A stretch of 55,152 bases of DNA, counting the filler, from Sluysia triapertura (lineage: Eukaryota), in the NCBI GenBank assembly GCA_046118255.1. It is 4 parts of 4 records of this genome, joined end to end, with 100 filler letters (N's around TTAATTAATTAA, not from the genome) between each part and the next. Parts side by side here need not be neighbours in the genome. Positions count along the whole stretch, not along the records: positions 1 to 11,117 come from JBJNIA010188698.1; positions 11,218 to 23,151 come from JBJNIA010154825.1; positions 23,252 to 35,479 come from JBJNIA010127631.1; positions 35,580 to 55,152 come from JBJNIA010059872.1. The stretch is one strand, 5' to 3'. Each line of letters begins with the position of its first letter. Positions within the stretch are counted from its first letter, which is position 1. Under the pieces are notes generated by a model that was not told where the DNA came from, made no database searches, and saw nothing but the letters and a program-made list of their open reading frames with translations. The translations under genes were made by a program, and so were the position numbers. Positions 1,252-49,550 of this stretch are shown piece after piece.

Positions 1252-1312
1252 CCATCATCAGTACTGACACAAATCTATTTACAGTAATGAGCAATGTCAG
1301 TGGTGGTGATGG
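1252..1312. ncRNA. Hairpin 2 of module 1 (pre-miRNA-shaped or DNA cruciform)
   Basis: CCATCATCAGTACTGACA (1252-1269) pairs with TGTCAGTGGTGGTGATGG (1295-1312), with two G-U pairs on the + strand and one mismatch. Confidence 0.4.
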
Positions 1313-3519
1313 TAATACAGTGTTTATTTTGATTAAAATTTAATGTTAATGATAATACAAAGATAAAAATAATAATTATAATAATAGCAACAATATGTTA
1401 TTATTATTACCATTATTACAAAAATGCATAAATTCCTTGTAAATCTTCAAAATTCTGTTTTTCATTTTCTTCAATACCTCTTAACATATTTTGAACCAAA
1501 TAAAGTAAAGAATGATAGAATTGAGTATAATAACAACAAAATGTTTTTAAAAATGCATAATTTCTTGTTCATTAAAATTGAACACGAGCTTGCTTTAAAT
1601 TATTTAAATTTCTAACATATTCTAATAAATTTATATGTATTTAAACTAAAGATCCTTAAGTAAAGGTTGTTTTGAATGGGTTTTACGTATATACTTGACG
1701 TTTTATGATATGATAACAGTTCTTTTGTTATGCAGTAAAATGTAGAATGTCAGAGTGAATTTCTAGATAATAACTAATGTTTTTGACTTAAAGCGACATT
1801 TGAACATTGGAATATTATGAGTAAAAGATACATTGAGAAGAGTGTGGTTTAGTGAGTGTGAAAAAGATAAACTACAGCATAACTCTCAGTATATTTGAAA
1901 GGTTATTGTGCCATGTTAACAACGTGATTAGCTCTCTTGCTGCTTTTTAAGTGGTATTATGTTTTGTGCTATTAAGGATTATGTGATAATAATTGATGAC
2001 TTTGAAAGGTTGTAATTGATTCGAAGATGTCGAGTGGATAATTTCGAATGTGATTAAGGTTTGATTGTTATGAATGTAGAGTAACATGTTTTAATTGGAT
2101 CTGTTGATGTAAATTGATGGTATTGTGTATGAATGTGGTTTGTATAATTATGAGATAGTGAATATGACTTAATTTTGGCAGATAAACTGTTTTAGTGAGT
2201 GATGAGAAAATATATATGTGAATGTTAAAGTGTTCAAAAATTAATTTTTAATAAATTTTAGTAGTTGTGAAGGTTGACCACCACACTTACGATGTCAGAT
2301 TTACTCATTTAAGGGCTAACACGTAAGTGGCATGTAAAAATTAAGGTTATTAATAAATGTTTAGCTATTCGGAGCTCAATATACGAAAAAGATTTATTTC
2401 ATGAAATTGGAAATAGTGTCAGAGATTCATTTTTCGTCTTTATTGCTGTGACGATTTAAATAATAATTTTACATAAGATCCGATTAAAAAGGATCTATAA
2501 ACAAAGTTAGCATTTGATTTGGTTATATAACGTGGATTTAAAATTAGATAATAAAGCTAAAGTTGGTCTACTTAGAATTCATTTGGTAAGCGATAGAATA
2601 CAATAGTCAATAAACATAAACAACTAATTTCAATAGTCAATACATAAATAAATATAAACAACGAAATTCTATTAATTTTATTTACAAATGTTATTTTAAA
2701 TTATTTTTTGTTAATACATTTACAAAATGATTTACAAATAAATTAATTTATTTATTAATTAATTTATTATTATTTTTCCTTTACAAATGTACCAGTATTA
2801 AAAAATAAATCAAGTTACAGATAGTTGTATAAATTTCGTGAATTATAAATAAATCATAACATGACAACCGTGACAGTTATAATCATTATGATAAATTTCG
2901 AATTTATTATTTTGAATTAGACGATAGTTTGTTTGTCAAAAACTCATCACAGGATCATTAATAGATAATGGCAAGACGAAAATTCGACAAAAATTAATGT
3001 TCACTTTTGAGTATTAAAAATGATCGGCATAATAAGCATGCATTATCGGCATGCACAATAATAAAGTGGAATTCTCGACTTAGGAATTATCTAAATATGT
3101 AATTTGTGTGAATAAAGAAAAGCTGAATAAGTGAAAATGGACAATGTAAAGTTTCGTAAAATGTAAGTTATTTTAGGTTTTGGTTATAACGAATAGTTAT
3201 TGATATAATTGGAATAAATTATTTACTTGACAAATGATAAAGTTTGCTGCGAAGTTTTCACTTATTTATGTTTTTGGTTTGTGACAGTGGAGGGTATACT
3301 ATTTAAATACACAAAATAGTAAAGACTTCAACAGGAATTTCATCTTTAAGATACCATTACGTTAAATGTTTATTAAGTTTGCTTCAACAACTTACATTAT
3401 AAATTAATTCAAGTCTCTTTACGTTATATATATTCAGTCGATTAATTCTGTTAAACTCATGATTCTTGACCTGACGTATGCAGGTGATATTTTACTTATT
3501 AATTGCATTACCTTCATTC

Positions 3520-4260
3520 CTTAATTTTCTTATTTCTTCTAACACGATTTTTACATGATTCTTGATTCAGCACTTTTGAAAACTTCATCACACAACATTA
3601 CATTCGATTTTATAAACCTAATATACACAGATTCTATTTATCAAAACCCGAGCATAAACCCTTAACATTACATAATCTGTACATCTTTAACATCTTAATA
3701 TTACACAACCACTGCATTCCAAAAACTTATACAACCCAACAGTCAACAAAGTAACCCCATTAACAACACAAAATTCAACTACGTAAAATACATAATATTT
3801 CAAAAGGTATGTTTAAGATCAAACATGATTGAGTTTATAAACTGACACTTTAAAAGTGATAAAAATGAAATTATTTTGTTATTTACATTTTAAATACGAA
3901 TTAATTACTACACTTAAAATTATTAAGTCATTTTCATAAATATATGAAATACATTTTCGATTACTTCTTAGATAACAAAAACATTAGACTTATTTCAAAA
4001 GTTTTACTTAAAACAAATGAGTCACATTCAAACTTAATCCACTCGACTTAACATGTCTTTGCTAACATCATCATCATTATACCATCCAACAGATTTAAGT
4101 TTAAATTCTAAATATACTCACCAATTACTTACAATTTTTAAGTCACAAAATTAATTCTTATTCGAATATGAAAATGACGAATTGCAGCACTTACTTGATC
4201 TAATACTTTACCATTTCGAGTTTTAACAATCATTTCATATATGACTTATTAACTTTATCG
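3520..4260 (-). repeat. Truncated inverted copy of the module body (C/A-rich on + strand)
   Basis: TCACATTCAAACTTAATCCACTCGAC (4022-4047) matches the reverse complement of GTCGAGTGGATAATTTCGAATGTGA in module 1 (about 2029-2053); the strand skew is mirrored. Boundaries approximate. Confidence 0.6.
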
Positions 4261-4692
4261 AGTACTGAAAATGATGCTAGATCAAAATCAGACTGAATGT
4301 TGCATGAAAAACTATCATAGAACCAGGAAGAGTTAGATAATTTAATTTACTTTGAATGCTGATTTATACTTTAATTTATTAATTCTATATAAATTAAATT
4401 ACTTCTTAGGGACTTAAGGTACGACGTAAAAATTTGATTTAAAATAAAATAATTACAAAAGGCTTAAGATCCATTATAAACTTTGAATAAAAGCAAAATA
4501 AATTGGCTGTGATTTATTTTACGAAAAACAAGACGCAAATTTGAACGTGCATGAATAAATACGAAATTGGCATAGTCGATATAGAAATGAATCTTTTTCA
4601 AACATCCAACGGAGCAAGTGATAAGTAGAATGTTACACATGCATTTATTCGCATTGAAATAGTTATCGAAACAATACGACACACCGATGTGC

Positions 4693-5202
4693 TTAGTTTG
4701 TGTGAGTCATGACTTCTTGAGTAAAATAAGCAGGATTACCAGATTCGAACATATCTTCTAGATCTTCATTTGTTATACTTCGTTTGGCAATGTCCATTTG
4801 CTTATTAATTCTATCTCTACAAATATCTCGATAAGGAACTGAAACAGCCATAACTTCGATGAAGTTTCTTGATATAGTCGCATACTGGGTTTTTCTTACT
4901 CGCAAATCCCACGACGATTTATAGGAAGCTTCATATTGTTCAATGCTTTGTTCAATATTTTTTAATTTTTCTTTGTTTCTACAATTACTTCGACTTGAGT
5001 TCTTTTTTGTTTTGATGAGGAGAAGATGGAATACCACTATGTTTATTTTTAACATCTTCTACCACATTCTTATCTGCTCAAACTCTCTTCGCATCTCTTC
5101 CATCTGAGTAAGAAAGCTCAATCATCTACCGCTGTCGATCCAAATTAATGGAATTACCTTGCATGCTGTTTTCATTTTCAATATATAATCAGGTAGATCC
5201 AT
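4693..5202 (-). pseudogene. STX1: Syntaxin-1-like pseudogene (Habc domain and linker), frameshifted, no introns seen, SNARE/TM part missing
   Basis: Pieces in different frames: [34 protein letters not shown] and [40 protein letters not shown]...[21 protein letters not shown]. These match the recalled syntaxin-1 motifs [31 protein letters not shown] and EELEDMLESGNPAIF. Confidence 0.9.
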
Positions 5203-11259: not shown

Positions 11260-11390
11260 AATTTTCCGATTCCCGACAGAATGATACCAACCTAATCTTG
11301 TAATGATGAAACTATCTGTTATAATTAATAACAGGTAGTTTCATCATTACAAGATTAGGTTGGTATCATTCTGTCGGGAATCGGAAAATT
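11260..11390. repeat. Near-perfect 63-bp-arm palindrome
   Basis: 11260-11322 is the reverse complement of 11328-11390 with one mismatch; 5-nt spacer AATTA. Confidence 0.95.
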
Positions 11391-11793: not shown

Positions 11794-12225
11794 TTAACTT
11801 AAATGGCAAGAAAAAATAAATAGAATTAATATTTACAAACCGAAAAATGGGAAAAACCAAAAAAATTATCATCAATGTTATTTTCAAAAAAAATAGTGCA
11901 TGTGGGCTACATTTTCGTTTATCGTCTCATTGGTTTGCCAGTTGATTTCTTACCCATTTCGTTGCCTCCATCGCTTCGATGTTGGCATTTTTTACCGGCT
12001 CTTTTGGATTCTTGATTTTCATTGATTCTTGAACCATTTCAACAACCTGATTTTATATGAAAACTAGTATTTCCTAATTCATATTCTGCAGAACTTGTAT
12101 TTATTAATTTTTAAATATTTTTATCCTGAATCTCCAAATAGTCCTCCAATAATCGAAAATGTTGAATTAATAAATTACTTTTACTTTAGAATTTTGACTT
12201 TTTGAGCTTTCTATCAGTAAGTGTA

Positions 12226-12456
12226 CAGTAGACTCCCGTATAACGCGATTAATATGTTACGTGTTGTATGAAATCGCGTTATAGGAAATCGCGTTGAACG
12301 AGGAAAAACTTGTATAACGCGAATGATGTTTGCATGTAAAAGTGAATTCCCGTATTTTATTCTATACCGCGTTATACGGGAATCGCGTTATATGAATAAA
12401 GTCGTCGCACTTCTTTTAACGCGTTGTATAAACTCGCGTTATACGGGAGTCTACTG
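12226..12456. mobile_element. Tc1/mariner superfamily (pogo/Tigger-like) MITE, 231 bp
   Basis: Perfect TIR CAGTAGACTCCCGTATAACGCGA, TA target duplication on both sides, and internal CGCGTTATA subrepeats. Confidence 0.92.
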
Positions 12457-14449
12457 TATTTCTGTTTCATTAATGTGTGTTTCTTTTTAAATTCATTAAC
12501 AATGTATTTTACCAGCAGTTATTTTTATCATTACCTCAACGAAATCATCAATGATTTTAAAATTGTAAGTTTATGATATTTTTTGTGATTTGTATAATGC
12601 ACGATATAATTCTTAGTACGCTAAACTACGATCAAATTTCATCTTTTCGAAATTACTTGTTTAACAATTGCGATTTTATTAAGTTTGACTAACATTTTTT
12701 CAAATTACACAATATTTTATTCAAAATATGTTATTCCTTTTAGTTTAAAAATAAACGCATATCATCGGGATATGCTTATGTAAAATCTAAAACGAGTATT
12801 TATGTGGTGTGAAAATGTTTGTCGTGCTACATTATTTATTACAGTTTGATCACTATGATTTTTAAATATTATTAAATAATGTACGTTTAATTTTCGCGTA
12901 CGATAGTTATCACATTGAGTTAGTCAAACCTGTTTATGCAGGTAATAGAGACACTATAAAAAACGCATAAAATATGCCGAAACATTGAAAAAAGCTTTAA
13001 AATATTTTGTTTTGGAAGAAAATCGCACAAAAATGATTTAACTCTATAAAAATGGCAGTTACTTTTCAAGTTTAGCTATTTTAGAGAATAATTTATTAAA
13101 ATTCTACTTTTGTTATCTGTTGTCCAATTTTTATCAAAACTATTAATTTCTGTAATATTTTATAATTTCCGTTTGAGTTAACCCTGCTTTCCCATCACCA
13201 CCTTGGTACCAAAATATTTTATTTAAGTAATTTTTAAATTTATTATTTTGTAGTAATTTTCATACCTAATGTATCTTCCGACACCACATAGGCCTACAAT
13301 TTGATATCTTGCGTTCTTATTTAAGTTAATTATAAAACAATAATTAAGTAGACATGTTTATTATGAAAACAACAAATAAGTATTGTATTTATTTAATTAT
13401 TAACAGTTTTTTCTTTCATTCTTTGTAATAATTTTTGGAGAACATTTTTTATTTCTTAGTAATGCAAATTTACGTGCCATGACATAAAATCAAGAGCAGT
13501 ATATAGAGATATTTTGTGCGTGATTTAATGAAAAGAAATAAAACCTTTATTTATAATAATTTAGCTTAAAGTAATTGGCATGTAGTATGGTATTCCAGTT
13601 TCTATTTGACGCATAACATATTCATTTTTATAAATGATTATAATCAAAAGAAATCAATTAGTCAAGACTTATAACACTTATTCGGATAAAACTTATTCGT
13701 GTAAAATTAGAACTTATTATAAAACTTGTAATCTTTTAGTTTATATATATTCGTGTATAAACTTAGTGAATAATGACTTATTTGACTTAAGGAACGATAA
13801 AACTTATGGAATAATCGTTTATAGTCTTTAAAACTTATAGCAATCTATACAATTTATAGTTTAGGATACTTTTGCTTATCAAAACGTAATTGGGTTATCT
13901 TTATAATTTACCTTCTTGTTCAAATGAATATCTTTATTTTATTTTAATGTATGCTTACGTTGCTGGTCCTCGCTCTGGGCACCAGTTATAATATGTGAAA
14001 ATTCAATAAGTTGTTATAATAAAACTTGATTATTATATGTTAAACAATTTCTTTCTAGTTGTAATATGCAAAATTTTTTGTTTTTTGATTATTGCTTTTT
14101 ATACTATGTAAACACTTTTTTTACTAAGTATATTATTCTAAACTGAAATTATTTTATTTTATTATTTTATAAAACTGTTGTGTATTATAAAGTGAGCTCT
14201 CTATGATACTGGACTTACTCACTAAATGGCCAGTACATAGATTTGCAACGTGAAGAAAAGAGATTAAAACTGGAGGTAAATGTATATAATTGGTTTATGT
14301 ATATTTTTAATTAGATATTACAATTATTACTAGTATAATGATAACAAAATTTTTTGAATGACTTTATTAACTACACAAAAGAAAAATATTGATGATACAC
14401 TTATTTAAACGATAATAAAAATTACAAAGTAAATATTAATAATCGAAAA

Positions 14450-15909: not shown

Positions 15910-17144
15910 TAGTACAAATTCTCTGTGGATAACATGGTATCATCGATGGATCCGAACAACATTATGTACTAGAGTGTGGCTTCCACTACCGCTAGAATTG
16001 CTTTATATTCTTTGAGATTTTAATAAGAGAGTCCATTATATATGAATAAAAATTGATTTGTCTTATGCGATTCAAAATGCGATTGATTTCCTTCCTGATT
16101 TTGGCTAATTGAATTTACGATATCTGAAAATAAATAAAGTTAAATAATAAGAATAAAATACTTGCATTCCATAGTGTGAAAAGCCCATAAAATATTGTAA
16201 ATACTGTTATAAAGGATTTAAAATAAACCCATTTTAAATAAAATTAATTTACAATACCTAAAATATATAAAAATTCACTTTATTAAATATCTAAATATTA
16301 ACTTTACAATAGAATCCGTTTCACGGAGATCATCGAAGTTGTGTTGGATTTTATAATCTTCATCGTCACGATATTGTGTGAAGTTGTGATGATATTCATT
16401 GTATTGTTTAAGAAAATTTTTGACACTATTACTCTCTTTGATGTTGTCATCATAATCATTGTCTTTATCACGTTCGCCATACTCATTGTTGTCTTCAACA
16501 TGTTTGGGGTAGTTGTGACCATCTTTAACCTTATATTTGTCGTCTTGATAGTAATCATCACTGTTGACATAGTTTCTAACTTTAAAACTAATGTTTTTGT
16601 AATCATCGTTATCATATCTTTTAACTTTAAGATCAAAGAATTTATAATCATCATTGTCATATCTTTTAACAAAAAAATCAAAGTATTTATAATCATCGTT
16701 ATCACATCCTTTAACTGAATGATTCTGAATGAAATCGTTACTCACTTCGCAATAGCTTACGCAATTATTATCATTTTTGAAATGGTCGAAAGAATAGCCA
16801 TCATTTACATCATGATTTTTATTGACCTTGTAACTGTTAACAGTTTCGCCATTACTTGCTTGATATTTGAAATGATTGTTATTAATTCTATCTTTAACAT
16901 ACTTGAAATAGTTGTGATAGTCTCTAGAACTAAAAGAAAACTCGTTATTGTTACAAACTTAAAAACTGTCATATTGACTTTTACCGTAGAGGTTAGCATC
17001 TTCAATTTCATAATAATAAATATTGTAAGTGATGACTTTGCTAATATATTCTTTACCATCCTTGTTGTTTTTATAACAGTGTTTAACATCAACTTCATCC
17101 TCGTAAACATAGTTATCATAATACAGTGCCTTGTGATATAACAT
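15910..17144 (-). pseudogene. Module-2 cargo gene: D/N/Y/K-rich repeat protein, paralogue of the module-4 cargo, with short 3' introns
   Basis: ORFs 16959-17144 and 16275-16745 are in the same frame and separated only by one TAA (16959-61); the interval translates open. The 14-aa repeat KRYDNDDYKYFDxxV is shared with 45078-45662. Short GT..AG introns follow, and a last exon starts near 16124 (DIVNSISQNQEGNQSHFESHKT) and contains stops. Confidence 0.65.
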
Positions 17145-17299: not shown

Positions 17300-17539
17300 G
17301 ATTGGATTGGCTGTCCAACAAAAAATGATTTTGAGATTTTTAATACTACTACTAATTTGATTGAACAGCCAATAATCTATTAATCAACTGTGATGACTAC
17401 CATCATCAACAGTGACATAAAATTATAGTTGTATAGCAAAAATGTCGCTGTTGATGATGGCAGTAACTCAGTTGATTGAGAACTGCTTAATTACATTTTT
17501 ATTTCGATCAATTTATGTTAAAAATGATGATAATAACAG

Positions 17540-17598
<59 letters not shown>

Positions 17599-17787
17599 CA
17601 TTAATCAAGAAAATTGAATAAAGTCTTTGTTTAGTTCTTTAACATAACCTTTTCTTTGATTTTCTTGATTTTCTGCACATATTTTGAATAATATAAGCTT
17701 AGAATCTTTAATTTACTTCTTTTGAATTAGTTCGATGCTAAGAGAATAGAATTGATAAATTATATAAAAATTAATATTAGAATGTTG

Positions 17788-17834
<47 letters not shown>

Positions 17835-18615
17835 TGTTATTATTATTATTGTTGTTGTTGTTGTTGTAGATAAACGCATAAAATCTTTGAATGCTTGCAA
17901 GATCTTACTTTTATCTTTATATATCGCCATCTAAATTGTAGAAATGAAGAGAACTTTCGGCTTCGTGAATTTATAGGGGTGAAGCTTTTCTTTGTGATTT
18001 TACGTACTTCTTTTGCTGTTTTAAGTAATTTTGTATGATTGTTTCTGATATTTTAACTGAAATAATTTTTTGGCTGAAATGTTATTGAAGTGCAGGTAAT
18101 TATGAACTAAATACTTGGAATAATGTAGACGTTAAAGTGAGTGATATGGTGTTGGGCTATTAAGATTAAGTAGTATCGAACGTAGATTTATGGTGTTTAA
18201 TTTATTGTGGAAGTATTTGTTGATTGATTATGAATATGGATGTGATTAAATTGTTTGAGATGAAAGGATGTAAAGATAAAGATATTTTGAATGAATTTTT
18301 AGTGTGTTTTGATAGTTTAAGTTGTGAGGATAAATGTTCTTAATGTGAATTGATGGTATATTTTATTAAGAATTGATAGACTTTAGGTGTTTTGAAAAGT
18401 GAAAATTTGTTTTTGTAGATTTGAGAGAAATAAGATATAAAAATAATTGTGATGAATTTTACAAGGTTGTGGTATATTGTTAAAGGATATAATTTTGGTT
18501 ATGATGCATTAGTTTTCACAAGATTTTTTAAAAAAATATGTAATGTATATTTTAAAGATTTGTGAAATTTTGATATGTTTAAGGTGAGATTTTAGTTATT
18601 AAGTTGGCCACCACA
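17300..18615 (+). repeat. Dispersed module copy 2 (microsatellite/box segment duplicated)
   Basis: Hairpin 1 at 17306-17373, hairpin 2 at 17382-17477, (TAT)n at 17545-17600 and (TAA)n/(TTG)n at 17789-17866, AAACGCATAAA at 17872, G/T body, end AGTTGGCCACCACA at 18602-18615. Confidence 0.85.
17382..17477. ncRNA. Hairpin 2 of module 2, pri-miRNA-like geometry
   Basis: Upper stem CTACCATCATCAACAGTGACAT (17397-17418) / ATGTCGCTGTTGATGATGGCAG (17442-17463), plus lower stem AATCAACTG / CAGTTGATT. Confidence 0.45.
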
Positions 18616-19682: not shown

Positions 19683-21126
19683 TCATAAATATCTAATATC
19701 TTTATTGTCTGATGTCCTTACTTCCCTACCTAAAGTAAAAACAATAGTTATGTTATCACTATAATAAAAATAAATAAAATTTACATTTATAAAGTCACTA
19801 AGGTTGGCATTATTCGACTGAACAGGAGCGCTAACCGATCGCATTAAACTTGTGAGTCTGGAAAAATGGTCCAAGTTATCTTGATGTAAATATGGATCCG
19901 TCATTTGACCAATAGTGTGAACATGTAGACAATTTCTTGGAGAAATCGCTTCCATAAGGACATAATACTATTCCAATACGCCGATTAGAAATTGGTATAC
20001 GTTTGATTGTATTATAATAGAGGTACATTTGACTAGGAGAATTACTTTCCGATTGCGCGTTACGTTCGCATGATTTGTAGTAAGAACTGTGAGAAAGATT
20101 CTCGTTTTTCACTTTACTTTTTGATATATCATAATTTTGTGACATTGATTGGCAATGTTTTGTATTGATTATAGACTTAAATATCATCCTTTATCTCTTC
20201 CATAGTGTTGACAAGAATTAGAGATTGAAACTATACTCATCATCACTGATTATAATAGATTGCACATTCTTAGACTCATAATCAATATTAAGATCTTTGA
20301 ACGCGTAAGTGGAACTCTTGCTCAAATACAAGTCAACTAAATTTAACAAATCTATTAGAATATTCAATTGTAGCTTACCAAAACATCTATTTTACAAATT
20401 TGACTGTGCTAATATCTCATATCTATATTTGCAAGAGAATAATGACTTATCGTACCATGGGCATGATAATTGTTAGTTTCAACTCCAAATCTAAAAGATT
20501 TGTGTTCATCAAAATCCATCCGCTTTATTTCTTGACTGGACCTAATTTATGTTTGTTTTTACATGAGACTACATAACCAACACCACAATTGGTTTCTATT
20601 CTATATTCATGGTGTTTAAATGCTATTATGAAACCATGAAACTTTTCTTCGATCTTGTATTTTTATTCACTATTTCTGTACTTTTCGATCACACTGTTCT
20701 GTGTCTGAGTAACACATATTTGAAGTTTTTATTTTTACATTGGTACCTTATTATTTTACATTCTGTTTCTTTTTTAGCAATTACATTAGTCTGGCGTTTA
20801 GTACAAGTAAAAATATTGTTATGTTCAGTACTGACATGATGATGATCTTTTTTAATTGTTTGTAAAGGAAGTATATACTTTAAATTCTTTTTATCAACAG
20901 CTTTATGATTAATGACATGATCATATTCGGAAATTGAATTTAATAGCTTTATTTCAAATGTATTTATCTCGTTATCGTTTAAAATTAATATATCTTCACT
21001 AATAAGTTCGCATTGAAAATTTTGAGTCATTACTTTAAATTCATCATGGAAATTTTTAGTAATAACTTTTTGAAAATTCATTATCTTTTTTGTGTTGTCA
21101 CATAAAAATTTTGAGAGTATTATCAC
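19683..21126 (-). pseudogene. Module-3 cargo gene: decayed protein with two CCCH-type zinc-finger remnants
   Basis: Chain of broken ORFs (20689-21126, 19876-20187, 19683-19955). Finger 1 is CPWYDKSLFSCKYRY..(shift)RY*HSQI at 20406-20463. Finger 2 is LCPYGSD..(shift)RNCLHVHTIGQMTDPY at about 19890-19965. Confidence 0.6.
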
Positions 21127-21189: not shown

Positions 21190-22580
21190 TGGATTGGTTG
21201 TCCAACCAGAGATATAAAAATAATAAGGAGAATCACTTTGGTTGGACAACCAGTAATAATCGCCAAAACAATTTAAGTGACAGTTGAAGCTACTATCATT
21301 GTTGATGAGAATTTATACATGGTGACCAAAAATGTACAAATAAAATTTAAAAATTAAAAATGATAAATATAAAATGATAATAATAATAATAATAATTTAA
21401 TGTTATTATTATTATTAAAACTGCATAAATTCTTTCTTTGTCTTGAAAAATATGATCTTACTTTTGATTCTTTTCTTTCTCAACATGTTCAACTTATATA
21501 AACAGACGAGCCTTAAAGAATTGTGAGTTCATGATGTTTCAGCTAAATGTTATTTAATTTGGATAAGGTTTTAAGGTGTAATAGTGATGCTAACGTTTTA
21601 AGATAATGCGTAAAGCGTTTAAATATAAATTTAACTGCTGCTTTCCGGTTTTAAGTGAAGATAAATTTAGGTTTTCGTTATTTTGAAGTAATGTAAATGT
21701 TTTATGTGGATATTAAAATACATCTTGATGTTTTGAAATGAAATAATGTTTTTGGCTGAAGATGAACTTGAGTATTAAAAGGTAATCATTTAAATATCTT
21801 GAAATAGTATAAATATTTAAAATGGATTTTAAATGTACATTGGTTTTTTGCATGAAAGTAATGTTTAGCTCTTCGGAGGTGTGACTTAAAATGCATTAGG
21901 AAGAGTATAGTTTAATGAATGAAAAGAAGATAGCTTTTAGTATGTTCAAAAAGATGATTGTTCTGTGTTGAAAATATGATTTATTTTCTTGCTATTTGTT
22001 AGGTGATCTTGCCTTTTGTGATGTTAGGCATTAAATGATAACAGATCATGAATTTAGGATACATGAATTGATTTGGGAGTATCTGGTAGTTGATTTCGAA
22101 TGTGGTTGTGGTTGGATTGTTATGACATGACGAATCAAATATTTTTGATGAATTTTTTAATGTAATTTGATGGTTTTGAATGTCGTTGTGGTTTGTATGT
22201 TATGAGATTGTAGATTTAAAATGTTTTGAAAAATGAGAGTTGATTTTGGTGGATCTGCAAAGGAATAAGATATAGGAACAGTTTTGACGAATTCTACAAG
22301 GTAGTTGTGTGTTGTTGAAAAGGATAGGATTTTGGTTATTTTTGTATTGAACTGCGAATTTAAAAATGTGAGTTGTAGGTTTTGTGAGTAAGTGTTATAT
22401 TGAAACATATGATTTTGATTATGTTGACATAGGGTTGTGTAAAAAAAGTTTTTAATAAATTTTTGAAAATGTATATTGTATATTTTGAAGGTGTGTGGTT
22501 TTATAATTTTTTGAAAGAAAATTTTTAATAAAATTTGTTGATACCGATATGTGGTTTCAATGAAAAAGCCTACTATCACA
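21190..22580 (+). repeat. Dispersed module copy 3 (hairpin 2 mostly deleted, terminus degenerate)
   Basis: Hairpin 1 ATTGGTTGTCCAACCAGAG (21193-21211) / CTTTGGTTGGACAACCAGT (21236-21254); (TAA)n; AAACTGCATAAATT at 21418; GATCTTACTTTT at 21454. The body aligns by eye to copies 2 and 4. Confidence 0.85.
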
Positions 22581-22671: not shown

Positions 22672-22741
22672 CAGCGATGGCGAACCTTTTTGACAAGTGG
22701 GTCACTTGAAATCGTTGCGTGGGTCATAGGTTCGCCATCAC
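22672..22741. mobile_element. 70-bp hAT (Buster-type) mini-element with two facing TIRs
   Basis: CAGCGATGGCGAACCT ... AGGTTCGCCATCAC, with internal GTGGGTCA twice; no 8-bp TSD visible. Confidence 0.7.
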
Positions 22742-33830: not shown

Positions 33831-35479
33831 ACAACAAAAAGGAGGAATTAATGTACAAGGGTCTGCTTGTGGTAGCATATGAAAATGTATGCGTCGAATA
33901 TAAACAGGAATATAAATTTGCAACTACTTTATGCTAAATTATTATAAATTATTATTTAACCATGCATAGAATACCTCTATATGTCGCTCCTGAATTAATT
34001 TGGTGGTACGAGCATTTACAATACACAGAAGCAAAAAAAGGCTCAATGAATTACTGAAACAATTGAAGAAAATAGTGTATAAATATATTTTATTTTGAGC
34101 TTCTTTTGATTGATCATGAACATGATTTTATAAGCTAAGTTTCAAAATGAATTTAAATAATTTGTAGGCCTGAGGGATAGTGCAAAACACGTTTTGTCCG
34201 TAAATTACTACAACAAAATAAGTTTGAAAAAAACTAACAAGATAAATTGGAAAACAAGATTGACTCAAACAGACTGTTGTAAATTAAAATCTTTTAAAGT
34301 AATTAATGGTTTTGAAAAAATTGATCAAGCTGACCTAAACAAATAGCTGATGAAAGTAAGCAGACTTATGGAAATGACTGCAATTTTTGTAAAACAAGAT
34401 AGTAATCATCGTACTGGAAATTTAAATATACATTATTTAATTAAAAATACTGGAGATCAAGCTGCAATAGAGTATTTCCCTACTGTAGGGAAATCATATC
34501 AAAATATCAATGCTTCACAAAAAAATATCTCATACATACATAGAACATTAAACAAAGTACCAGATTCATTCAAAAAACAAACATAATCATTGTATATAAT
34601 TGACATGAACTATAGTTATTGTTATTATAAATCAAATCGTATTAAAATATATAATAATTATTGTGATTATTGTCATATAATAACTTTTATAAAAACACCA
34701 TAATATCATCAGATCATCATGTTAAAATATAATAATGACATCGTTATCATTATTACTACTCTCATCTTTATCATCAACTTTACTTATTCTTATTTTCGTC
34801 TGAATTTATATATATTTATGTATATTTATGTATGTGTGTATCTAAAAGGTATATGTCGAAAAAACAGATGTAGTACTAATATCTCCTAAGATACAATAGA
34901 ATCAAGTAAGTAATCAAAGAAGCAATAAATGAAGAAGGACCGAAACGATTACCGTGTGTTAAGCCTGAAATGCCAAAAGATCAATCACCGTGTGAAATTG
35001 ATGAAAAATTAGAAGTAAATCCAGCACAAAATCATAAAACAAGTTAAACAATGTCAGTATTACTAATCTTGGAAGTAGTTGGGCAAATAGTTTAGAATCA
35101 TCATCAGTGTCATCAACGTCACCAACTTCAACCAACCTATAATTTAACACTATTTCTACCACGATTTTTGTGTTTACCTATTTTTACCCAAAAAATTGTA
35201 CATTTAGATCTAGTATGAGCTAAAAGAAAATTATAACAATAAATAAAATTAATAATTATACATATATTGAGAAAAAATGGTTAAAGTTAAAAAAAATTTT
35301 AATAAATTTAATAAATATTATGTATGGATTTGTCGATCAATAATTTATGTTAAGCAGAAAGATGAGACTTTATTTATCAATTATGTCAAAAGTTAAGTTA
35401 TGCTTGAAAATTTTTCTGAAATATCTAAAAACATTGAATTTTTAATAGTGGATTATGAAGAATTAAAAAATTTTCTGGA

Positions 35480-35579: not shown

Positions 35580-35665
35580 AGCTATCAGCCCCGTCTAACA
35601 ATTTCATTTTTTTAAATATATTCAATTATACTACTTGGCACTTTTTAGGCCTTTTAACCCAACAT
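35580..35665 (-). repeat. Second copy of the tRNA-like locus (5' flank plus first bases), truncated by the gap
   Basis: Reverse complement of about 40063-40146 (AAAAGGCCTAAAAAGTGCCAAGTAGTATAATTGAATATA...GTTAGACGGGGCTGATAGCT). Confidence 0.9.
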
Positions 35666-38600
35666 TATTTATACCTACAATTTCTTTGCTCACATCGTTG
35701 ATAAACATTTTTAGTGAAAAAAATTTAATGAGCTATCGGCTCAGATTTATTTCAGTTTGATTGCCGAATATATTAGTTCTATCACTCATAGAATTACCTT
35801 ACACAAAAAACGAATAAAATATTTAATAAAATAAAAAGACTTGAGACAATATAGATAAAAATGAATTTTATGAATCAAAATAAAAACCTTATGGTAAAAT
35901 TGCTGATTCAGAACCATCAAGAGCTTTACGATGATTTTTTCTAATTCCATCATGACTTTTCGACATTGTTTTTGGTCTATATTATAATAATAATGCTTCT
36001 ACTTATTCTTATACCACAATAAAGTAGTCTCTTCTTATCTTTGTCATTTAAATTAAGATTTAAATATTTATTCATCTGACAAATCTTGGCATGGGAGGAA
36101 CTTTAAGTTCTTTATCAACATGATAATCTTAGAACGTTTAAGCACGTGGATTATTATAATTATCATATATGTAATTTTCTAATTTAAATTTTTTAATCTA
36201 TTTTTTAACAAAAAACCGATCTTCTAATCTAGTATTAACATATTTTTTCGTTATAAGTTGTTTATTAAGTGGATTGTCTAACATTTTGTGTAATCTCTCA
36301 CCAAATTTTGATTTTATTATTTTTACTACTTTAACAGCACAAACACAACAGCACAAGCATCTAATGTTTTATCTCTAGTATCTAAACATATGACTTTTAT
36401 ACGATTAGTAATATTAACATGAATTAAAAATATTAAATCTACTAATCTAACATGAGATTTAGCTATAAAATTAACACGATTTTTAGGCAGATTGCAATGA
36501 AAACCGAAACATTTATCAATATTAGACTGGCTTAGTTCACTTAATGACATATATAATCATCTTCAATTTCAAATGAAAATTATCTAAATTATCTTTAATA
36601 ATTCTGTTAACATCTTTTTTAACAAGAATACTCACAGTAGCTAGAAATTGATATACACCTAAATTTCTGATAAAACCTGCCCGAAAACTATGTATATCAC
36701 GATAGTTTAACATAAATTTAGTACCATCTGAATCTAAACTGCATGTCGTTGCTGCAGTATATTCGGCTCTTTGTATTCGATTAAATTCATATATAATGTG
36801 CAAAAAAATTTTGTATAGTAATCTTTAAACCTTTACGACAATATACAATTGCATTATTGTAACGTCTTTTATGGTGTTCATTGCAATACATATATTACGT
36901 GGTGTAGATATCTTTTTGAATGTTTTCTAATTTTCATGCGTAAACATACTAAACAATTTTTACTGTGTTCTAAAGACGAACAGTCAACGCTATATTACGT
37001 TCTATCTTTTTGTTCTAAACTTTCAAATATGTCAGAACAATTTAATACACGTGAAATCTTAAAGCACTATATCTGATATCCGTTTTTTTGAATCAATCAA
37101 TTGAAAGATCGTTCATAAGAATTGAATTTTTAGAATTGTACACTTCAAAAAATGCATAATTTTTAATTTATAATTTAATTTTACTAGGCCTAAATGCCCT
37201 AACTTTCAGATAAAATGCTTTCGCTTCCTGTGTTTCGTTTTAGAGGTATTACATATTCTAAAATTAGAAAAATGTTGTGCATCATTATTTTGGACAATAT
37301 TACAATATACTTTTTTTAATAATGTAAATTTATTTGTTTGTATATATAATTAAAACTCATATTATAAAATTTCAGAGTATTTTTTAAGAAAACTAAAAAC
37401 GGTCGTTTGACCCCGTCGCGCCATATTAAGTACTATACTAATGTTTCCAAAATTATATTACAAATAATTTTTCACGAACATCTGCTCTTGAAAAATTAGT
37501 AGTATTCTTCATTAATACTTTATTAGTATTCTCATTAATATGTTTTTCTTATTTAAAAACACGAGTTAGTTTTTCCCATAAAGTTGATTTCTTACTGTTA
37601 CTGGAATTAATCTAATATATTCTCGTGATTTATTAAGTTTCTCTTTATATGGATTATGTTGTAATAAAAGCGTTATAAAAAATTGACATTATTGTTTAGT
37701 TACTTCCAGTTCATGTTCAAGTTCTTTAATTTTATTTTTCAAGGTTGTTGATATGGATGAGATTAAGTCTGAAAATGTGCATTTATTGTTTGATGAAACT
37801 GACATTTCTGTTTCTGAATCTTCTGTTATGAACATTTTGCTTTTGTATACGAGTAAGTTGTCAATGAAAATAAAATGGCAAGGTTTAAGTGACATTCTTG
37901 CATATTTGGTTCTGACTCTTCAATATTAAAACTGAATGTTTGACATTGAAAAACTTTCTTCTTTTTTTTATTTTAGAATCTAACCTGAGTTTCTATTTTT
38001 ATGATTTTTTTCTGTAAATATAAACTGAATATTACAATAATTTCCAACATTTCCAACATTTCCAACATATAAATGAGTGATGACTATCAATATGCGTTAA
38101 AGACTGTGTAAAATGAAGATTTGTTTACATCAGAATCACTTTCTACTAACTTGAAAGAAACATTTTGTCAATCAAATTTTTGAATACTGTAAGCTCGTAG
38201 CATCGAACAGAACTAACTAAATAATATTGTGTTTTAAAAATTGGTTTGGAAATATCATTATCATTGTTAAGTATGAAAACAAAATCACATTAAAAAGTTT
38301 TAAGATGTTAAACGTAAAGAAGATAGTGAAATGTTACGTGATTTAAATTGAGAATTTCTTGTTTATACTGTGGATAAAGAAAGATTTTGGATTGAATGAG
38401 TTGCACCAGCATACTATTTAATCCTAAAACAGACATTATTTGTTACAAATTACTCAAGCAATATAATCATAACGTAGATTTATAATACTGCAAATGAAGG
38501 CATCTTTACACCATTTCGAAACGAAGATTCTACGGAGATCGTTTTACATCTTGACAGTATCGTAACTAGTAGTTTGAATATTTGGATAAACGCACACTCC

Positions 38601-38856: not shown

Positions 38857-40135
38857 TTAATAATTTTCACACATAAATAACTGCATAATTATTACAATAC
38901 TTTCAATAGTTTTACTAAAGTATTATCTATTTGTCTTCTCATGATTTATAAAATAAATATTATTAATATTAATATTATGATTATTATTAAGGTAATAAAA
39001 CCAATTTTTACTTCGTTAAACATCGAAAAGAACCAAATAAATGGTTGTGCAAACAATTCAGCCACAGTCGGAACTGTATGTACACAATTTACGATATTTC
39101 TAGTTTGATAGATGACAATAATCGATTTTTATTTGCTGGTAATTTTAAAATAGGAATTAATGCTAATGTACTGGCGTATATGGAAAAATGGTACTACAGC
39201 CGAACTAAAGTCGTTTATGAGAATTTTGATGATAATTTATTTATTGATTTAGAATTTTATAAAAAATTAGACATAACGAAAAATCATTTTTAGTATACAT
39301 GTGCATATATATATGTAATTTTATTGTATTTATTTAATTAAATTTATTTGTAAATTTTTAATTTTGTACAAAATTAACATTATGGATTTAAACTTTGGGA
39401 AATGTATTTCTTCTGTTCTGGATATGAAACGTAAAATTCAACTGGCAAAAAATGCAATAATTTTTGTTGAAGTTATGAATTTCAATTTATAAATAATACG
39501 ATTTTTGGAATGATAATGTGATAACAATAATATTAAAATAATAATAATAATAATCTAAATAATAATGAATTTAAAAAATACTTTAAAGTACTTTAATTAT
39601 TAATTATTAAAGAACCTTTCAGGTCATTAAATTCAAAAAAATAAGTAAAGTATTGTTAGGGTTTCTTCAATTTATAAAGTACTTACAAAATAGAATAAAA
39701 ATTCGAATATGTCTGTAATGAACGATCCTATAGGATTTACTAGATCAAAGTTATGTGAATATTACAAACTTTAGGAATTACTTGGATTGATATACTAAAG
39801 TCTGCTTCCTCTACTTTTATTCTGCTTTTTTCAATAGCGTTCTTTTTATAATTTATGACTTCTACTGCTTTCTATGTCCCTATGATTCAAATATTAAATT
39901 ACCACAGTACTTAAATATGTCTATTGCAAATTTGTTTTGAAATATTACTAAGACATCTTCAAATTTTTCTCTACAAGACTCTAACACAACTAAAAGTTTT
40001 ATTTCACTTTTACATAAAAAATACATAAATAATATGCTTTTAAAACAATCAAATACGTTGAATATTGTTGGGGTAAAAGGCCTAAAAAGTGCCAAGTAGT
40101 ATAATTGAATATATTGAAAATGAAATTGTTAGACG

Positions 40136-40208
40136 GGGCTGATAGCTCAGTGTTAGAGCAGTCGGACTGCGCAGACGATGGTCCCGGGTTCGATCCCCGG
40201 TCAATCCA
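40136..40208 (+). tRNA. tRNA-Ala-derived gene or pseudogene with non-canonical anticodon arm
   Basis: Acceptor GGGCTGA/TCAATCC with G3:U70 and an A discriminator; D arm GCTC/GAGC; perfect T arm CCGGG-TTCGATC-CCCGG; TTTT immediately after. The anticodon arm pairs poorly and has one extra base. Confidence 0.75.
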
Positions 40209-42363: not shown

Positions 42364-42641
42364 TCAGGTGTGCCAGAGACCTTCTTATTCTCTTAATTTA
42401 ATGTTACATGTGCAGAACCAACATGGTTTCAGGAGTGCCAGAGGCCTTCTTATTCTCTTAATTTAATGTTACATGTGCAGAACCAACATGGTTTCAGGAG
42501 TGGAATTTGAACTTAAATTCATCTCACTGACAGTTATATGAGGACTTCAGGTCCAAGAATTGGAATTCAGGTTTCAGGAGTGGAATTTGAACTTAAATTC
42601 ATCTCACTGACAGTTATATGAGGACTTCAGGTTCAAGAATT
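42364..42641. repeat. Two overlapping tandem duplications (65-bp unit x2, 80-bp unit x about 2)
   Basis: TCAGG recurs at 42364, 42429 and 42494; GGTTTCAGGAGTGGAATTTG at 42490 and 42570. Confidence 0.92.
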
Positions 42642-43650: not shown

Positions 43651-43699
43651 AATTTGACGTAATTAAAATTATGAAAAATTATTTTTTTATTACTTCTAA

Positions 43700-44736: not shown

Positions 44737-45674
44737 TTACGGGAAGGCCATATTCTTTACCTCTCGTTCATTACAGTTCTTTTTATTTTCTGTGCTTGTA
44801 GTATTCCATACCAATGGGTCTTTCAATAGTTGAGTTATTCTAGAAGATTGCCATTTATGCTTTTGTCTTGAGTATTCCTGAGGTTCCAGTTCATATGTAA
44901 TATGTGCGTAGCGCCAAGGACTCCGTTTTTGATACATAGACCATATTTGTCTGTATAGTATGGACACATCGCAGTAAAATTCATTTTATACTCATTATAT
45001 TTGTAGAAATGATTACTGGTATATTCAACTTTAATAGTATCGATACTTTTGTTTAAAGAATCACTGTCTTTATAGTATTATCCACTCTTGTAATAACCTT
45101 TATCTATAACGTTAATATTTCTGTTATCATCATAATCGTCAATATAACTTTTAACTTTAAGATCAAAGTATTTATAATCAACATTATCAAATCTTTTAAC
45201 TAAAAAATCAAAGTATTTATAATCATCGTTATGATATCTTTTAGCTAAAAATTCAAAGTATTTATAATCAATATTATCATATCTTTTAACTTTAAGATTT
45301 ACATCGTTGTTATAAAATTTAACTTTAAGATAATCATGATTGTTAAGGGTTTTAGCTTTGAGATAATTATCAATGTGATGACTTTTAACTTTAAGATCAT
45401 CATAGTTGTCATGACTTTTAATTTTAAGATCATGATCATAGTTATGAGTTTCGACTTTCAAATCATCATGATTGTGATGACCTTTAGCTTTAAGATCATC
45501 ATCGTTGTTATGACTTTTAGCATTAAGATGATCATCATAGTTATGAGATTTTACTATAATATTAGCGTCATTGTTATGAGTTTTCACTTTAGGATCAACG
45601 TCGTTGTTATAAAATTTGACTTTAAGATCATTATCGTTGATACAACTTTTAAAAGAGTTCATATCTAAACTTCG
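44737..45674 (-). pseudogene. Module-4 cargo gene: N-terminal 11-aa/14-aa tandem repeats plus C-terminal CCCH finger, frameshifted
   Basis: ORF 45078-45662 carries K(S/T)HNxDDxLKV repeats (33 bp), then KRYDNxDYKYFxxxx repeats (42 bp). A splice acceptor TTTTAACTTACTTGTAG lies in frame just upstream. The finger reads TAMCPYYTDKYGLC (shift) YQKRSPWRYAHITYEL at about 44888-44975. Confidence 0.65.
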
Positions 45675-45787: not shown

Positions 45788-46827
45788 TTGATTGGTCATC
45801 CAACCAGAGGAATTGAGATAAAAGCTACAGTTATTTTGCTCTGATTAGATGACCAGTAAAAATAAAGAATACAGTTAATAGTGAATGTACTGATTTAGAG
45901 ATGAACCACCATTCATGATGACATTCATTTGTACATAAAGATTATTTATGTCAGTATGAATGGTGGTAATTTGTTCATTTATGTATTTAATTAAAATAAT
46001 TAAAATTAAAATGTTAATGATAATAATAATAATAACATTTAAAATAGTGATAATAATAATAATAACAAAATATTATTATTATCATTATAAACGCATAAAC
46101 TTCTTTATCTTTATTAAACATGATCTTACTTTCATCTTTACTTTTGCTGAACATATTGGAATTTAAAATGAAGAAACACGATCTGTTGTTATATGTATGG
46201 TTTTTCTTATTAATTTATTAATCTTATGATACCTCAGTTTAATGTTCTAGATGAATTGATGTTTCTGTCTGAAAATGTTATTAAAACGTATATGATTTTG
46301 ACGTAATTATTTTGAAGTAGTGCAAGTGTTGAGAAGAGTGAAGAATGTTAACTGGTGTTTTGAAAGAAAGTCATGTTTGCTTGTTGGAACTTAATAATAA
46401 ACGATCGTACATTTAGAATATTTGGGTTTTTTGAAGTAATATCGAATGTAATTATGATTGAATTGTTAAGAATGAAAAATAAAATGTTTTGAATGATTTT
46501 TGCTTTAGTTTAATGGTTTGAAATGTAATTGTGATTTGAATGTTATGAGATGTCGAATTGTTCAATGGTACTCCTTGTTATGAGATTGTAGGTTTAAAAT
46601 ATCTTGAAAAGTGAATGTTTATTTTGATAGATGTGAAGCGAAATGAGGTATAAAAGCGATTGAGATGAATTTCGCAAAATTGTTATATGTTGTTAAAAAG
46701 CTTTATTTTAGATATGATAGATTAGTTTTAAATAGGTTTAAAATATATAAAATGTATTTGGAAGTTTATGCTTTTATATGTTTGAATTTTTGTAGATTTG
46801 ATTAAGATTGGTGAGTTAGCCACCACA
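45788..46827 (+). repeat. Dispersed module copy 4
   Basis: Hairpin 1 at 45791-45857, hairpin 2 at 45901-45978, (TAA)n, AAACGCATAAA at 46089, GATCTTACTTT at 46122, G/T body, end GTTAGCCACCACA at 46815-46827. Confidence 0.88.
45901..45978. ncRNA. Hairpin 2 of module 4
   Basis: ACCACCATTCATGATGACAT (45905-45924) / ATGTCAGTATGAATGGTGGT (45948-45967), with a possible lower stem ATGAA / TTCAT. Confidence 0.45.
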
Positions 46828-47774
46828 TCGTTTATTTTAACATTACTGAAGATTATAAATTCTTTGATATTCAAATATTTATTTCCAAATTATTTTATTA
46901 TTAGTTTTTTTGCCCACTGAATAGTATTTTCTTTGCTATTGATTTAAATGAGGTACATATATGCAGCAATTTTATTACCACTCACACTCTAAACACAGTC
47001 TACAATCTTATTCTGATTATATCTAATACATATCTCAAAACCCGTAATAAAATCATTAAAATGTAAATTGCATCAATTAATTTCATTAATATCAATATTG
47101 TTTTTCCCAGCATCGTCTCCTTCATTCACATCAACACCATTCCGTAGAGCATCTTTAAACTTTTTGTGTTACATGCTCTTTAAAGATGCATTACAAGAAG
47201 TGTCTATAAATAAAATGAATCATGTACAGGAAAATGTATTTCGGAATTTGATTAAGTAAATAAGATGGGAATGAATCATGTAAGTAATATTGTTACTCAT
47301 TTACCACAAAAAAGATGTGGATCAATAATCAGCTTAGAAATATATGCTTATTTGGACTAAAGCTCGTGAAAATCTCTGCAGTGTAGATAATTTACCAAAC
47401 CAATTTTCTAGCCATTATCATGATGACAATGACGAATCTAGTGAAGATTCAAGTAATGATCATAACAACAATAATGAGAAGAAAATAAAACATCAATAAC
47501 AAAGCAATCGAAACGAAAAACTTAATCCCTTAAAAATTCTAATCAAAATTCTAAAAAGAATCACAAAAATTAGCAGCCAATAAAAAAAACGTCCCAAAAG
47601 CGCTAATCAACAAATAAAAAGTTCTCCAAGACTAAAAAATAATTACTATAATTAAAAACAGAATGTTTAATTTTAAATATTTATAAATTTAACCTTGTTT
47701 TTGTATTAAATAAAGTAATGAAAGGCATTTTTTGAAAAATCTGCTTATTAGAATTTTTGTTCATATAATTTAAG

Positions 47775-47982
47775 ATGCTTTGTAAAATGTGAAAACAATA
47801 GCGGCTCTGTTTTATTTCTTACTTATGATATATCACATGTTGATTGGGTTATTCAATATGATGTGCCAAAATATTATGATGATTATGTTCATAAAGTTGG
47901 GCGTACAGCCAGAGCTGAGAAATCTGATATTTCAGTACTTTTTATTTGTTTCACACAGAAACATGAAGGAATAATCCAATAA
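47775..47982 (+). pseudogene. DEAD-box RNA helicase C-terminal fragment (motif V-VI region)
   Basis: SVLFLTYDISHVDWVIQYDVPKYYDDYVHKVGRTARAEK. Motif VI HRxGRTAR is recognisable; motif V (DVAARGL) is missing. Confidence 0.85.
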
Positions 47983-48895
47983 TCCAATGTAATTTTGACG
48001 ATTTCTTTCCCAAGAAGTAGATGTTCCGATTTTATGGATTTTGAATTTTGTGGTATTGCAAAAAGTATTGTTCCTTTAAACATTTAAGTCGTATGGTTTA
48101 TGTAGAATGGATACGATCTGTTATTTGTATAATTTAATAACTAAGATAGGTTATATTTATGGACTTCAAGCTGATGATTTTATTAATTGTTTTTATGGCT
48201 GTCTTGAAATAATAACTTGGGTTATTGCAAAAAGCAGAAATGATTATTATTTTTAGGATTTCAAATTAAATTAGATAATCATACTGACACTGCTTTTGTC
48301 GAAAAGATGGATTAACAATAATTGTTGAAGATAGTAAATTCTATCAGCTTGATTTGTTTCTTAATCAATTATTATTTCAACCATACCAAATGAAAGAGAG
48401 TTACAGATTATTATTCACAATAAACATGTCAATCTTGATTGTAATACGAACTATCAACGCATCCGGTATCTTTGATTTTAAGTCTTTATCAAAAGATGTA
48501 GCTACTACTCATTTTAATTTCTATTTTGACAGAGGATTTTTGTATGTAGTTTTCTAGTTCAATAAATGCGAACAGCTTTTATGATTTTTTAACCGTAATG
48601 ACTTTAAGCCTTGAGCCGAATTGTAATTTAAAAAATTTTAAATTTTGTGATAAATAGGCGAACCTTAAGTCCCATTTAGCTTTGACTTAACTACTTGTAG
48701 CAATGAAGAAATTAAATCGGACCTTAAGTCCATATTTAATAACGAGTTTTTCGAAATTAAATTATTTATTATGATCTTAGTTCATAAATTAACTATAATC
48801 CGACCATTAGAGCTTGAAATATCATTGATATATTATCAACAATAAAGGACTAAGTATTTTACACACTTTAATAAGTCATATTATTTTATTTTTTA

Positions 48896-49550
48896 TGTGT
48901 GATTCAAACCGTTTTATTGCATTTTTCGGCGACCATGGAGTAATTTATCATGATAATATCTAATAATATTATGAAAATAACATTGTGCATAGAATTATGG
49001 CTATTTTTGTTATTGAAAAATATTCAAAACCATTAACTCATATTAAATTTTATTTAAAACATTTTAACCCATAATTCATAACATCAGAATTAGAATTACA
49101 TTTAAAACCTTCAATCTACATTTTATATCATCAATCTTTCAATTTCCAAACTTTACTTTACATTTTAAATTCCATTAAAAACATTTTAAATTCATGGTTT
49201 TATTTCATTTCAGAATGGGTATCAAAATATTTGTTCAGAAGAAGCATTTTAAAAAAAGACAGATGGTGTAAAGTATTCAAAAGATGAAATTCATGTATTT
49301 TAATTTTTATATTATTATTATTAATCATTTTTATTATTATTTTCATTATTATTATTGTTAATATTAGTGCTTTTAATTATATTATTATTTTTGATTTACA
49401 CAGTGACTAATTTTGTTCTTTGGTGTGTCATCGATTTGACAGTTAATTAAACTTAATTCAACATACCATGTTGACTGTCTATCAATGGCAAATAGTTGCT
49501 GGTTAATTGAATGAGGGAATTAATTTTGTCTGAGTGGACATCCAATCAGA
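48896..49550 (-). repeat. Dispersed module copy 5, inverted and shortened
   Basis: GGACATCCAATCAG at 49536-49549; hairpin TGTCATCGATTTGACAGTTAA (49426-49446) / TTGACTGTCTATCAATGGCA (49471-49490); TTA tracts; TCAAAATATTTGTTCAG near 49222; C/A-rich body. The left boundary is tentative. Confidence 0.7.

Follow-up and report, generated by a model that had tools for sequence, protein, structure and literature searches.

A 55,152-nt stretch of the Sluysia triapertura genome (GenBank assembly GCA_046118255.1), composed of parts of four records and hereafter termed the window, contains repeated copies of a non-coding module of 1.1-1.4 kb in which one short stem-loop, hairpin 2, is conserved in length and pairing, but not in sequence. 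The module has been copied at least five times, and three of the copies have kept a 61-nt hairpin with a 19-bp stem, through selection or repair, while the loops and stem interiors changed. From its sequence features, hairpin 2 is tentatively interpreted as a possible lineage-specific, fast-diversifying microRNA (miRNA)-like precursor on the + strand. This claim is modest because three intact copies in one window carry the evidence.

The window has a G+C content of 25.6% and three gaps of N's, and all counts of cassettes and hairpins given here are counts within it. The module reads, in order, hairpin 1 with a CCAAT-like box, hairpin 2, a hairpin formed by an inverted AAT/TTA microsatellite (hairpin 3), a GCATAAA motif and a G/T-rich block, and it lies head-to-head with a broken open reading frame (ORF), the cargo. 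The copies are numbered as cassettes 1-5, the fifth probably being inverted and decayed.

Conservation of shape in hairpin 2

1252..1312, + strand: hairpin 2 of cassette 1; 19-bp frame, 61 nt; folding, alignment and covariation
17400..17460, + strand: hairpin 2 of cassette 2; 61 nt; folding, alignment and covariation
45906..45966, + strand: hairpin 2 of cassette 4; 61 nt; folding, alignment and covariation
17380..17479, + strand: extended hairpin 2 of cassette 2; 11-bp lower stem, 17380-17390 / 17469-17479
21293..21335, + strand: hairpin-2 remnant of cassette 3; 5' arm and loop, 3' arm reduced to 4 nt; profile E 0.078
49426..49490, - strand: hairpin occupying the site of hairpin 2 in inverted cassette 5; neither the profile nor the covariance model recovers it as a member

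The first-pass annotation of this DNA had placed a single family of hairpins, with stems of 18-22 bp and loops of 23-25 nt, at four coordinates, and hairpins are present at all four. Those of cassettes 1, 2 and 4, which make up the intact sample (n = 3 related sequences), do belong together: they align without gaps over stem and loop as 19 bp, 23 nt and 19 bp, spanning exactly 61 nt, the loop at 1252 reading as 25 nt because the last stem pair is broken. The hairpin at 49426-49490, by contrast, is not recognised as a member. Its frame is spaced unlike that of the other three, its folding is weak (z = -1.1 on the + strand and -2.4 on the - strand), and it is absent both from the 17 matches to a hidden Markov model (HMM) at E <= 20 and from the 42 matches at E <= 10 to a covariance model of the other three copies. 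No additional copy of hairpin 1 or hairpin 2 was found in the window by the models. The loss of most of the hairpin from cassette 3 had also been claimed; the 3' arm is indeed mostly deleted, down to 4 nt, but the 5' arm and a 20-nt loop are kept, and therefore about half has been lost.

When the whole window was scanned for gapless stems with 16 or more Watson-Crick pairs out of 19, five or more G-C pairs and a loop of 15-35 nt, six sites emerged, against a mean of 0.04 and a maximum of one in 100 block shuffles. Five of these are hairpins of the cassettes, among them the hairpin-2 copies at 17400 and 45906, and the sixth is a palindrome resembling a miniature inverted-repeat transposable element (MITE); the hairpins at 1252 and 49426 score under this strict cut-off. 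Folding z-scores on the + strand are -4.9 (1252), -10.7 (17400) and -3.9 (45906). Across the three copies 54 of the 57 cells are paired, compared with 23-61% in slid controls, and five of the 19 pairs have changed on both sides; the observed level of pairing and compensation is reached by 3 of 500 shuffles. The covarying interiors that had been proposed are thereby upheld: pairing is kept while the stem interiors vary, and with three copies this constitutes good evidence without amounting to a formal probability. Identity between copies is 70-72% in the arms and 39% in the loops. Directly 5' of hairpin 2, a conserved GATGA (1244-1261, 17391-17408 and 45900-45915) might base-pair with the beginning of the 5' arm, giving a small alternative hairpin in all three copies, perhaps through chance in low-complexity sequence.

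Hairpin 2 as a possible microRNA-like precursor

The suggestion that these stems represent a small-RNA family, made when they were first annotated, gains from the 61-nt geometry, the free loops, the mid-stem wobbles and the energy of the + strand, and loses on the basal stem, the seed and cargo targeting. The 61-nt span suits a 22/22-nt duplex, and falls inside the ranges given in two papers: 55-70 nt for most mammalian precursors (pre-miRNAs; PMC12553114) and 60-100 nt in a flatworm survey (PMC5594548). Of the four MirGeneDB criteria, as described in PMC12539619, the structural one specifies at least 16 paired bases, and copies 1, 2 and 4 have 16, 19 and 18 of 19 pairs; the other three concern small-RNA reads. 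All six internal wobbles or mismatches lie at stem positions 7-14 of 19. When folded as RNA, the + strand has the lower energy in all three copies (-29.3, -32.1 and -26.6 kcal/mol, as opposed to -19.9, -29.4 and -23.8 kcal/mol for the - strand), and the non-Watson-Crick cells comprise four G-U against one C-A.

Under such an interpretation, hairpins 1, 2 and 3 would form a short cluster transcribed on the + strand, away from the gene whose promoter overlaps hairpin 1, presumably by RNA polymerase II initiating divergently from the CCAAT-like box. Drosha/Pasha and Dicer would be expected to release a duplex of ~22 nt, the neighbouring hairpin perhaps assisting the processing of copies with a weak basal stem. 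The 3' arm would act as the guide, its predicted 5' end being at the weaker, loop-side end of the duplex, and the paralogues may diversify the guide sequence as young germline clusters do.

A number of observations weigh against this. The 4:1 excess of G-U is not significant (binomial p ~0.19), hairpin 1 showing 4:4, and DNA folding parameters favour the + strand too. The conserved 600-900-nt G/T block is not expected of the flank of a primary miRNA transcript (pri-miRNA). An extra lower stem had been claimed for copies 2 and 4, and was compared with shuffled flanks for all three intact copies. It stands at 17400, where none of 200 shuffles is equally stable, but not at 45906 (p 0.32), nor is one significant at 1252 (p 0.15), so that the basal stem exceeds shuffled flanks in one copy of three; those of cassettes 1 and 4 pair 13-14 flank bases on the + strand, no better than the shuffles, and RNAalifold finds no lower stem common to the three. 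With predicted cut sites, no 7-mer seed is common to the three copies in either arm. The two arms are equally diverged (70% and 72%), without mature/star asymmetry, and their conservation is not far above that of the G/T block at its best (68-77%). Cargo mRNAs, which had been put forward as targets, show only sporadic seed matches: for the three predicted 3' arms there is no 6- or 7-mer seed match anywhere in the five cargo regions, and these regions yielded no duplex evidence either. Rfam 15 gives four matches at E <= 5, none of them on hairpin 2; a MIR827 match to hairpin 1 of cassette 4 reaches 26.5, the gathering score being 65. Canonical hairpins are described, in PMC12553114, as having stems of 30-35 bp and loops below 15 nt, and the processing motifs CNNC and apical UGU, taken from PMC6943042, are not conserved across the copies by eye.

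Hairpin 2 is pre-miRNA-like in shape, but it can be classified neither as a miRNA nor as a single miRNA family. Some other structured RNA seems improbable. Small nucleolar RNAs are marked either by an H box and ACA tail or by a C box and D box; inspection by eye found GTGATGA before the stem in two of three copies with no D box after it, and ACA after the stem in one of three, and neither the H/ACA nor the C/D class was retained as a candidate.

Hairpin 1 and the putative cargo promoter

1154..1221, + strand: hairpin 1 of cassette 1; TTGG-N4-CCAA palindrome present as two inverted copies
17305..17374, + strand: hairpin 1 of cassette 2
21192..21254, + strand: hairpin 1 of cassette 3
45790..45857, + strand: hairpin 1 of cassette 4
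49530..49549, - strand: single 20-bp palindromic hairpin-1 arm of cassette 5; best window match outside cassettes 1-4

Hairpin 1 starts ~95-116 nt upstream of hairpin 2, and has 18 bp that are 93% paired, with four of the 18 pairs doubly compensated. Each arm is itself a TTGG-N4-CCAA palindrome, the four middle bases of which vary by cassette and are mirrored in the second arm. Homology between cassettes begins sharply here, the 60 nt upstream having 35% identity. The GATTGG of hairpin 1 is invariant, such that the cargo strand reads CCAATC in all five cassettes, which resembles an NF-Y box directed toward the cargo. An ATG-led ORF begins 96-166 nt past hairpin 1 on the opposite strand in every cassette (123, 61, 130, 194 and 51 aa).

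This arrangement is what would be anticipated if the hairpins were DNA-level palindromes or cruciforms of the cargo promoter, with arms re-matched by template switching and little or no selection on RNA. The explanation, which is unlikely overall, suits hairpin 1 well: the arms are self-palindromic, cassette 5 retains a single one, and the wobbles show no strand bias (four G-U and four C-A). Template switching can make and repair stems in one step, according to PMC8794818. Yet CCAATC is not enriched in the window (16 occurrences against 14.2 expected), and binding sites alone need no complementary variable middles. The arms of hairpin 2 are not self-palindromic across copies, and unselected repair leaves its fixed 23-nt loop with diverged sequence unexplained. 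Hairpin 1 as a DNA element and hairpin 2 as an RNA could be compatible, as the readings are not fully exclusive.

Remainder of the module and its cargo

1368..1432, + strand: hairpin 3 (AAT/TTA inverted microsatellite) and GCATAAA, cassette 1
17520..17882, + strand: two AAT/TTA hairpins and GCATAAA, cassette 2
21373..21429, + strand: hairpin 3 and GCATAAA, cassette 3
46043..46099, + strand: hairpin 3 and GCATAAA, cassette 4
1740..2285, + strand: G/T-rich, C-poor non-coding block with CCACCAC end, cassette 1
18030..18615, + strand: G/T-rich block with CCACCAC end, cassette 2
21690..22570, + strand: G/T-rich block, cassette 3, followed by a hAT remnant
46230..46827, + strand: G/T-rich block with CCACCAC end, cassette 4
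49056..49121, - strand: weak remnant of the G/T core, cassette 5; E 0.045
1..1063, - strand: cargo of cassette 1; broken ORF of no family, unlike the other cargos, cut at the window edge
16275..17144, - strand: cargo of cassette 2; repeat ORF rich in Y/D/N/K, interrupted by a single in-frame stop; homologue of cargo 4
19686..21081, - strand: cargo of cassette 3; broken ORF, C/H motif near the end by eye, weak link to cargo 4
44740..45662, - strand: cargo of cassette 4; repeats of 11 and 15 residues followed by a broken CCCH-like finger
49667..50566, + strand: cargo of cassette 5; broken ORF of no family

The inverted AAT/TTA microsatellite is found in cassettes 1-4, as is the G/T block, which extends over 600-900 nt with ~20% G and 6-9% C (GC skew up to 0.7). 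The four blocks align with z-scores of 3.2-21 and are 50-63% identical overall, rising to 68-77% in the best parts. Neither stable folds nor further hairpins were detected in 66 windows of the block on both strands (z = -2.6 to +1.9). A coding role was rejected, since codon periodicity was not consistent over 16 gapless blocks and no frame is conserved; a mitochondrial origin was likewise discarded, with no mitochondrial Pfam family in 12 frames (table 14) and no Rfam rRNA match; and strand-biased editing finds no place, transitions per G (497/1364) and per C (143/338) being alike.

The stretch at 49056-49549 on the - strand is likely to be a fifth, inverted and decayed cassette because a hairpin-1 arm, an AAT run and a weak match to the G/T core, each weak alone, stand in the right order. 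Other skewed stretches at 3400-4400 (-), 23250-23800 (+) and 52400-53300 were rejected as further cassettes (z at most 2.5 against cassettes 1-4).

The CCACCAC motif that ends the G/T block in three of four cassettes occurs eight times in the window, against 0.45 expected, at positions including 2273, 8740, 18603, 27933, 32550 and 46815 (+) and 43775 (-). Three sites are at cassette ends, one lies inside a hairpin-2 arm and four are ahead of other ORFs; because of these last four, the motif may be a general promoter motif of this genome. Two resemblances, noticed post hoc, may indicate direct repeats or long-range pairing: a 9-mer near the right end of cassette 3 (22568-22579) repeats the start of its hairpin-2 arm (21289-21299), and the CCACCAC end motif of cassette 4 resembles the start of its own hairpin-2 arm. 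Right after cassette 3 stands a hAT-like transposase remnant (22674-23150; by eye, without a Pfam match), with a hairpin at 22676-22736.

All five cargo ORFs are interrupted by stops or frameshifts, and they appear intronless. At the DNA level only one of ten cargo pairs is similar, cargos 2 and 4 (z 16.3), which are homologous over their full length; the remaining pairs have z of at most 1.5, and cargo 3 matches cargo 4 weakly (E 0.013; p 0.09). Cargos 1 and 5 match nothing, and therefore at least three kinds of ORF adjoin the module. The finger of cargo 4 matches Pfam zf-CCCH_UNK at E 8e-5, under the curated cut-off. Among 1.84 billion representative sequences, cargo 4 has no true homologue: its nine matches are all limited to the repeat region, six carrying unrelated Pfam domains and three none, and the top match aligns solely through the 11-residue repeat. 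A sequence search of the PDB for cargo homologues gave seven matches, all at E of 0.3 or above.

Hairpins as possible signals of a mobile element

Such a combination of a shared module and differing ORFs raises the possibility that hairpin 2 serves solely as a structural signal for a gene cassette that is amplified or mobile. Its shape would then be read in RNA or single-stranded DNA (ssDNA) for packaging, processing, priming or copying, leaving pairing and length fixed and the stem sequence free. We regard this as doubtful, if deserving of consideration. It accords with the five copies in 55 kb, one of them inverted, with the drift of stem sequence under retained pairing, with the abrupt homology edge at hairpin 1, and with a G/T block that is non-coding, unstructured and strongly skewed. 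Cassettes 1 and 3, moreover, share a well-aligned G/T block (z 21) and have unrelated cargos, as might follow from cargo exchange, and the intronless look of the cargos is paralleled by a processed pseudogene elsewhere in the window. Against these points, the full-length homology of cargos 2 and 4 is what plain gene-family duplication predicts, and fast protein divergence could imitate exchange. No target-site duplication or terminal inverted repeat is visible by eye, the right-end motif CCACCAC also precedes other ORFs, and no transposase, reverse transcriptase or Rep tied to the module was found among the frames scanned with Pfam (two sets of 46 and 26, a subset of all frames in the window).

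Another reading, a rolling-circle nicking origin or the end of a Helitron or Helentron cut by an HUH endonuclease at the stem-loop, is most improbable, and the origin suggested in the first-pass annotation is not supported. The stem-loops, microsatellite, varied ORFs and strand skew recall non-autonomous rolling-circle elements in outline, as these are portrayed in PMC4067079. However, the loop sequences of hairpin 2 are unconserved. Rolling-circle origins of the CRESS type carry a conserved nonanucleotide in the loop; a similar string with at most one mismatch is present in none of four hairpin-2 loops and one of four hairpin-1 loops. The top 12 profile matches include no subterminal inverted copy of the hairpin-1 arm at the far end, no 3' palindrome or strong stem is evident in the G/T block, and neither a CTRR nor a TT boundary is conserved by eye. 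The scanned frames contain no Rep, HUH or helicase family in the module, the sole helicase match being a Helicase_C fragment outside it.

It is also conceivable, though decidedly unlikely, that the module is the control region of an undescribed gene-cassette element, uniting a promoter for exchangeable intronless cargo with an opposite-strand small-RNA hairpin, the guide of which would be rewritten in each cassette while its shape stayed fixed.

Comparison with known systems

The DNA appears flatworm-like because the best matches and residues of a syntaxin pseudogene are of flatworm type; another fast-evolving spiralian is also possible. This fragment (~4696-5200, -) is intronless and frameshifted, its best matches are to cestodes and trematodes (60-64% identity in 22 of the first 24 of 30 matches), and it carries flatworm-type residues by eye. 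A protein search with one exon found no relatives.

Flatworms retain Drosha and Pasha (PMC5594548) and possess lineage-specific miRNAs with unique seeds (PMC3840308). The flatworm mir-71/mir-2 clusters and lineage-specific miRNAs of the latter source resemble the module in having neighbouring hairpins of ~60-70 nt with at least 16 bp, free loops, mid-stem wobbles and lineage-restricted sequences. Unlike clustered animal miRNA genes, the module has no seed shared by paralogues, a significant basal stem in one copy of three, no mature/star asymmetry and no Rfam match, and it possesses a conserved G/T block and a head-to-head linkage to changing ORFs. A weak basal stem beside another hairpin recalls the suboptimal miRNA hairpins subject to cluster assistance, but such assistance (PMC10576077) depends on an optimal neighbour, and in hairpin 1, too, no consistent basal stem is present.

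The DINE-1/HINE Helentrons (PMC4067079) are similar in being non-coding repeats that have a palindromic arm with an inverted repeat close by, together with a microsatellite. The module differs from them in showing no pair of subterminal inverted repeats (12-15 bp) at both ends and no evident 3' palindrome or TT boundaries, in being only 50-63% identical between copies over the G/T block, and in its covarying stem interiors. Bidirectional NF-Y/CCAAT promoters are matched by CCAATC ~100-170 nt before the ATG in all five cassettes, but here an 18-bp inverted repeat, itself covarying, encloses the box, and two more hairpins come after it. The genomes of multipartite ssDNA viruses, and minicircle genomes, join different single genes to one common stem-loop control region. 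The module, in contrast, is chromosomal, with no conserved loop motif, no Rep found among the frames scanned and much lower identity.

Six 14-15-nt strings from the arms have no match in the main texts of the literature, nor in four supplementary files of PMC3840308, file 1, possibly relevant, lying outside the search. No description of such a module was found in titles and abstract starts of the literature on the topic, which is no proof of its absence from print. The module is real and non-random, and apparently undescribed, miRBase and MirGeneDB lying outside the search.

If the hairpins are miRNA precursors, they would form a family with strict geometry and seed turnover, duplicated along with a promoter and fast-changing genes, and would offer a tractable case of the origin of new miRNA seeds in a flatworm-like lineage. 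Should the module instead be mobile and exchange its cargo, it would represent an unrecognised route to new genes.

Other features of the window

Besides the syntaxin fragment (4696-5200, -), broken copies of a helicase C-terminal domain (47752-47979, +) and of Rad1 (48288-48554, +) mark this as a pseudogene-rich region. An intact, intronless ORF of 236 aa (25257-25964, -) has the look of a PAN and C-type lectin protein by eye; Pfam gives no match for it, and none of 275 candidates proved homologous. At 26690-26870, two candidate GT-AG introns of ~33-35 nt, also identified by eye, suggest that the genome may have very short introns.

Several other repeats are present. A near-perfect 63-bp palindrome with a 5-nt loop (11260-11390), MITE-like, lies beside an N-gap, and a 25-bp inverted repeat flanks a CG-rich 235-nt element at 12224-12458. 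The sequences at 12837-13625 and 33879-34469 constitute an inverted dispersed repeat with 68-75% identity, and there are tandem duplications of 65 and 80 nt (42364-42641). A tRNA-like head (Rfam E 5.6e-6; tRNA-Arg by ARAGORN) with a body repeated at 93% identity, at 40061-40208 and 35580-35669, is probably a tRNA-derived short interspersed nuclear element (SINE).

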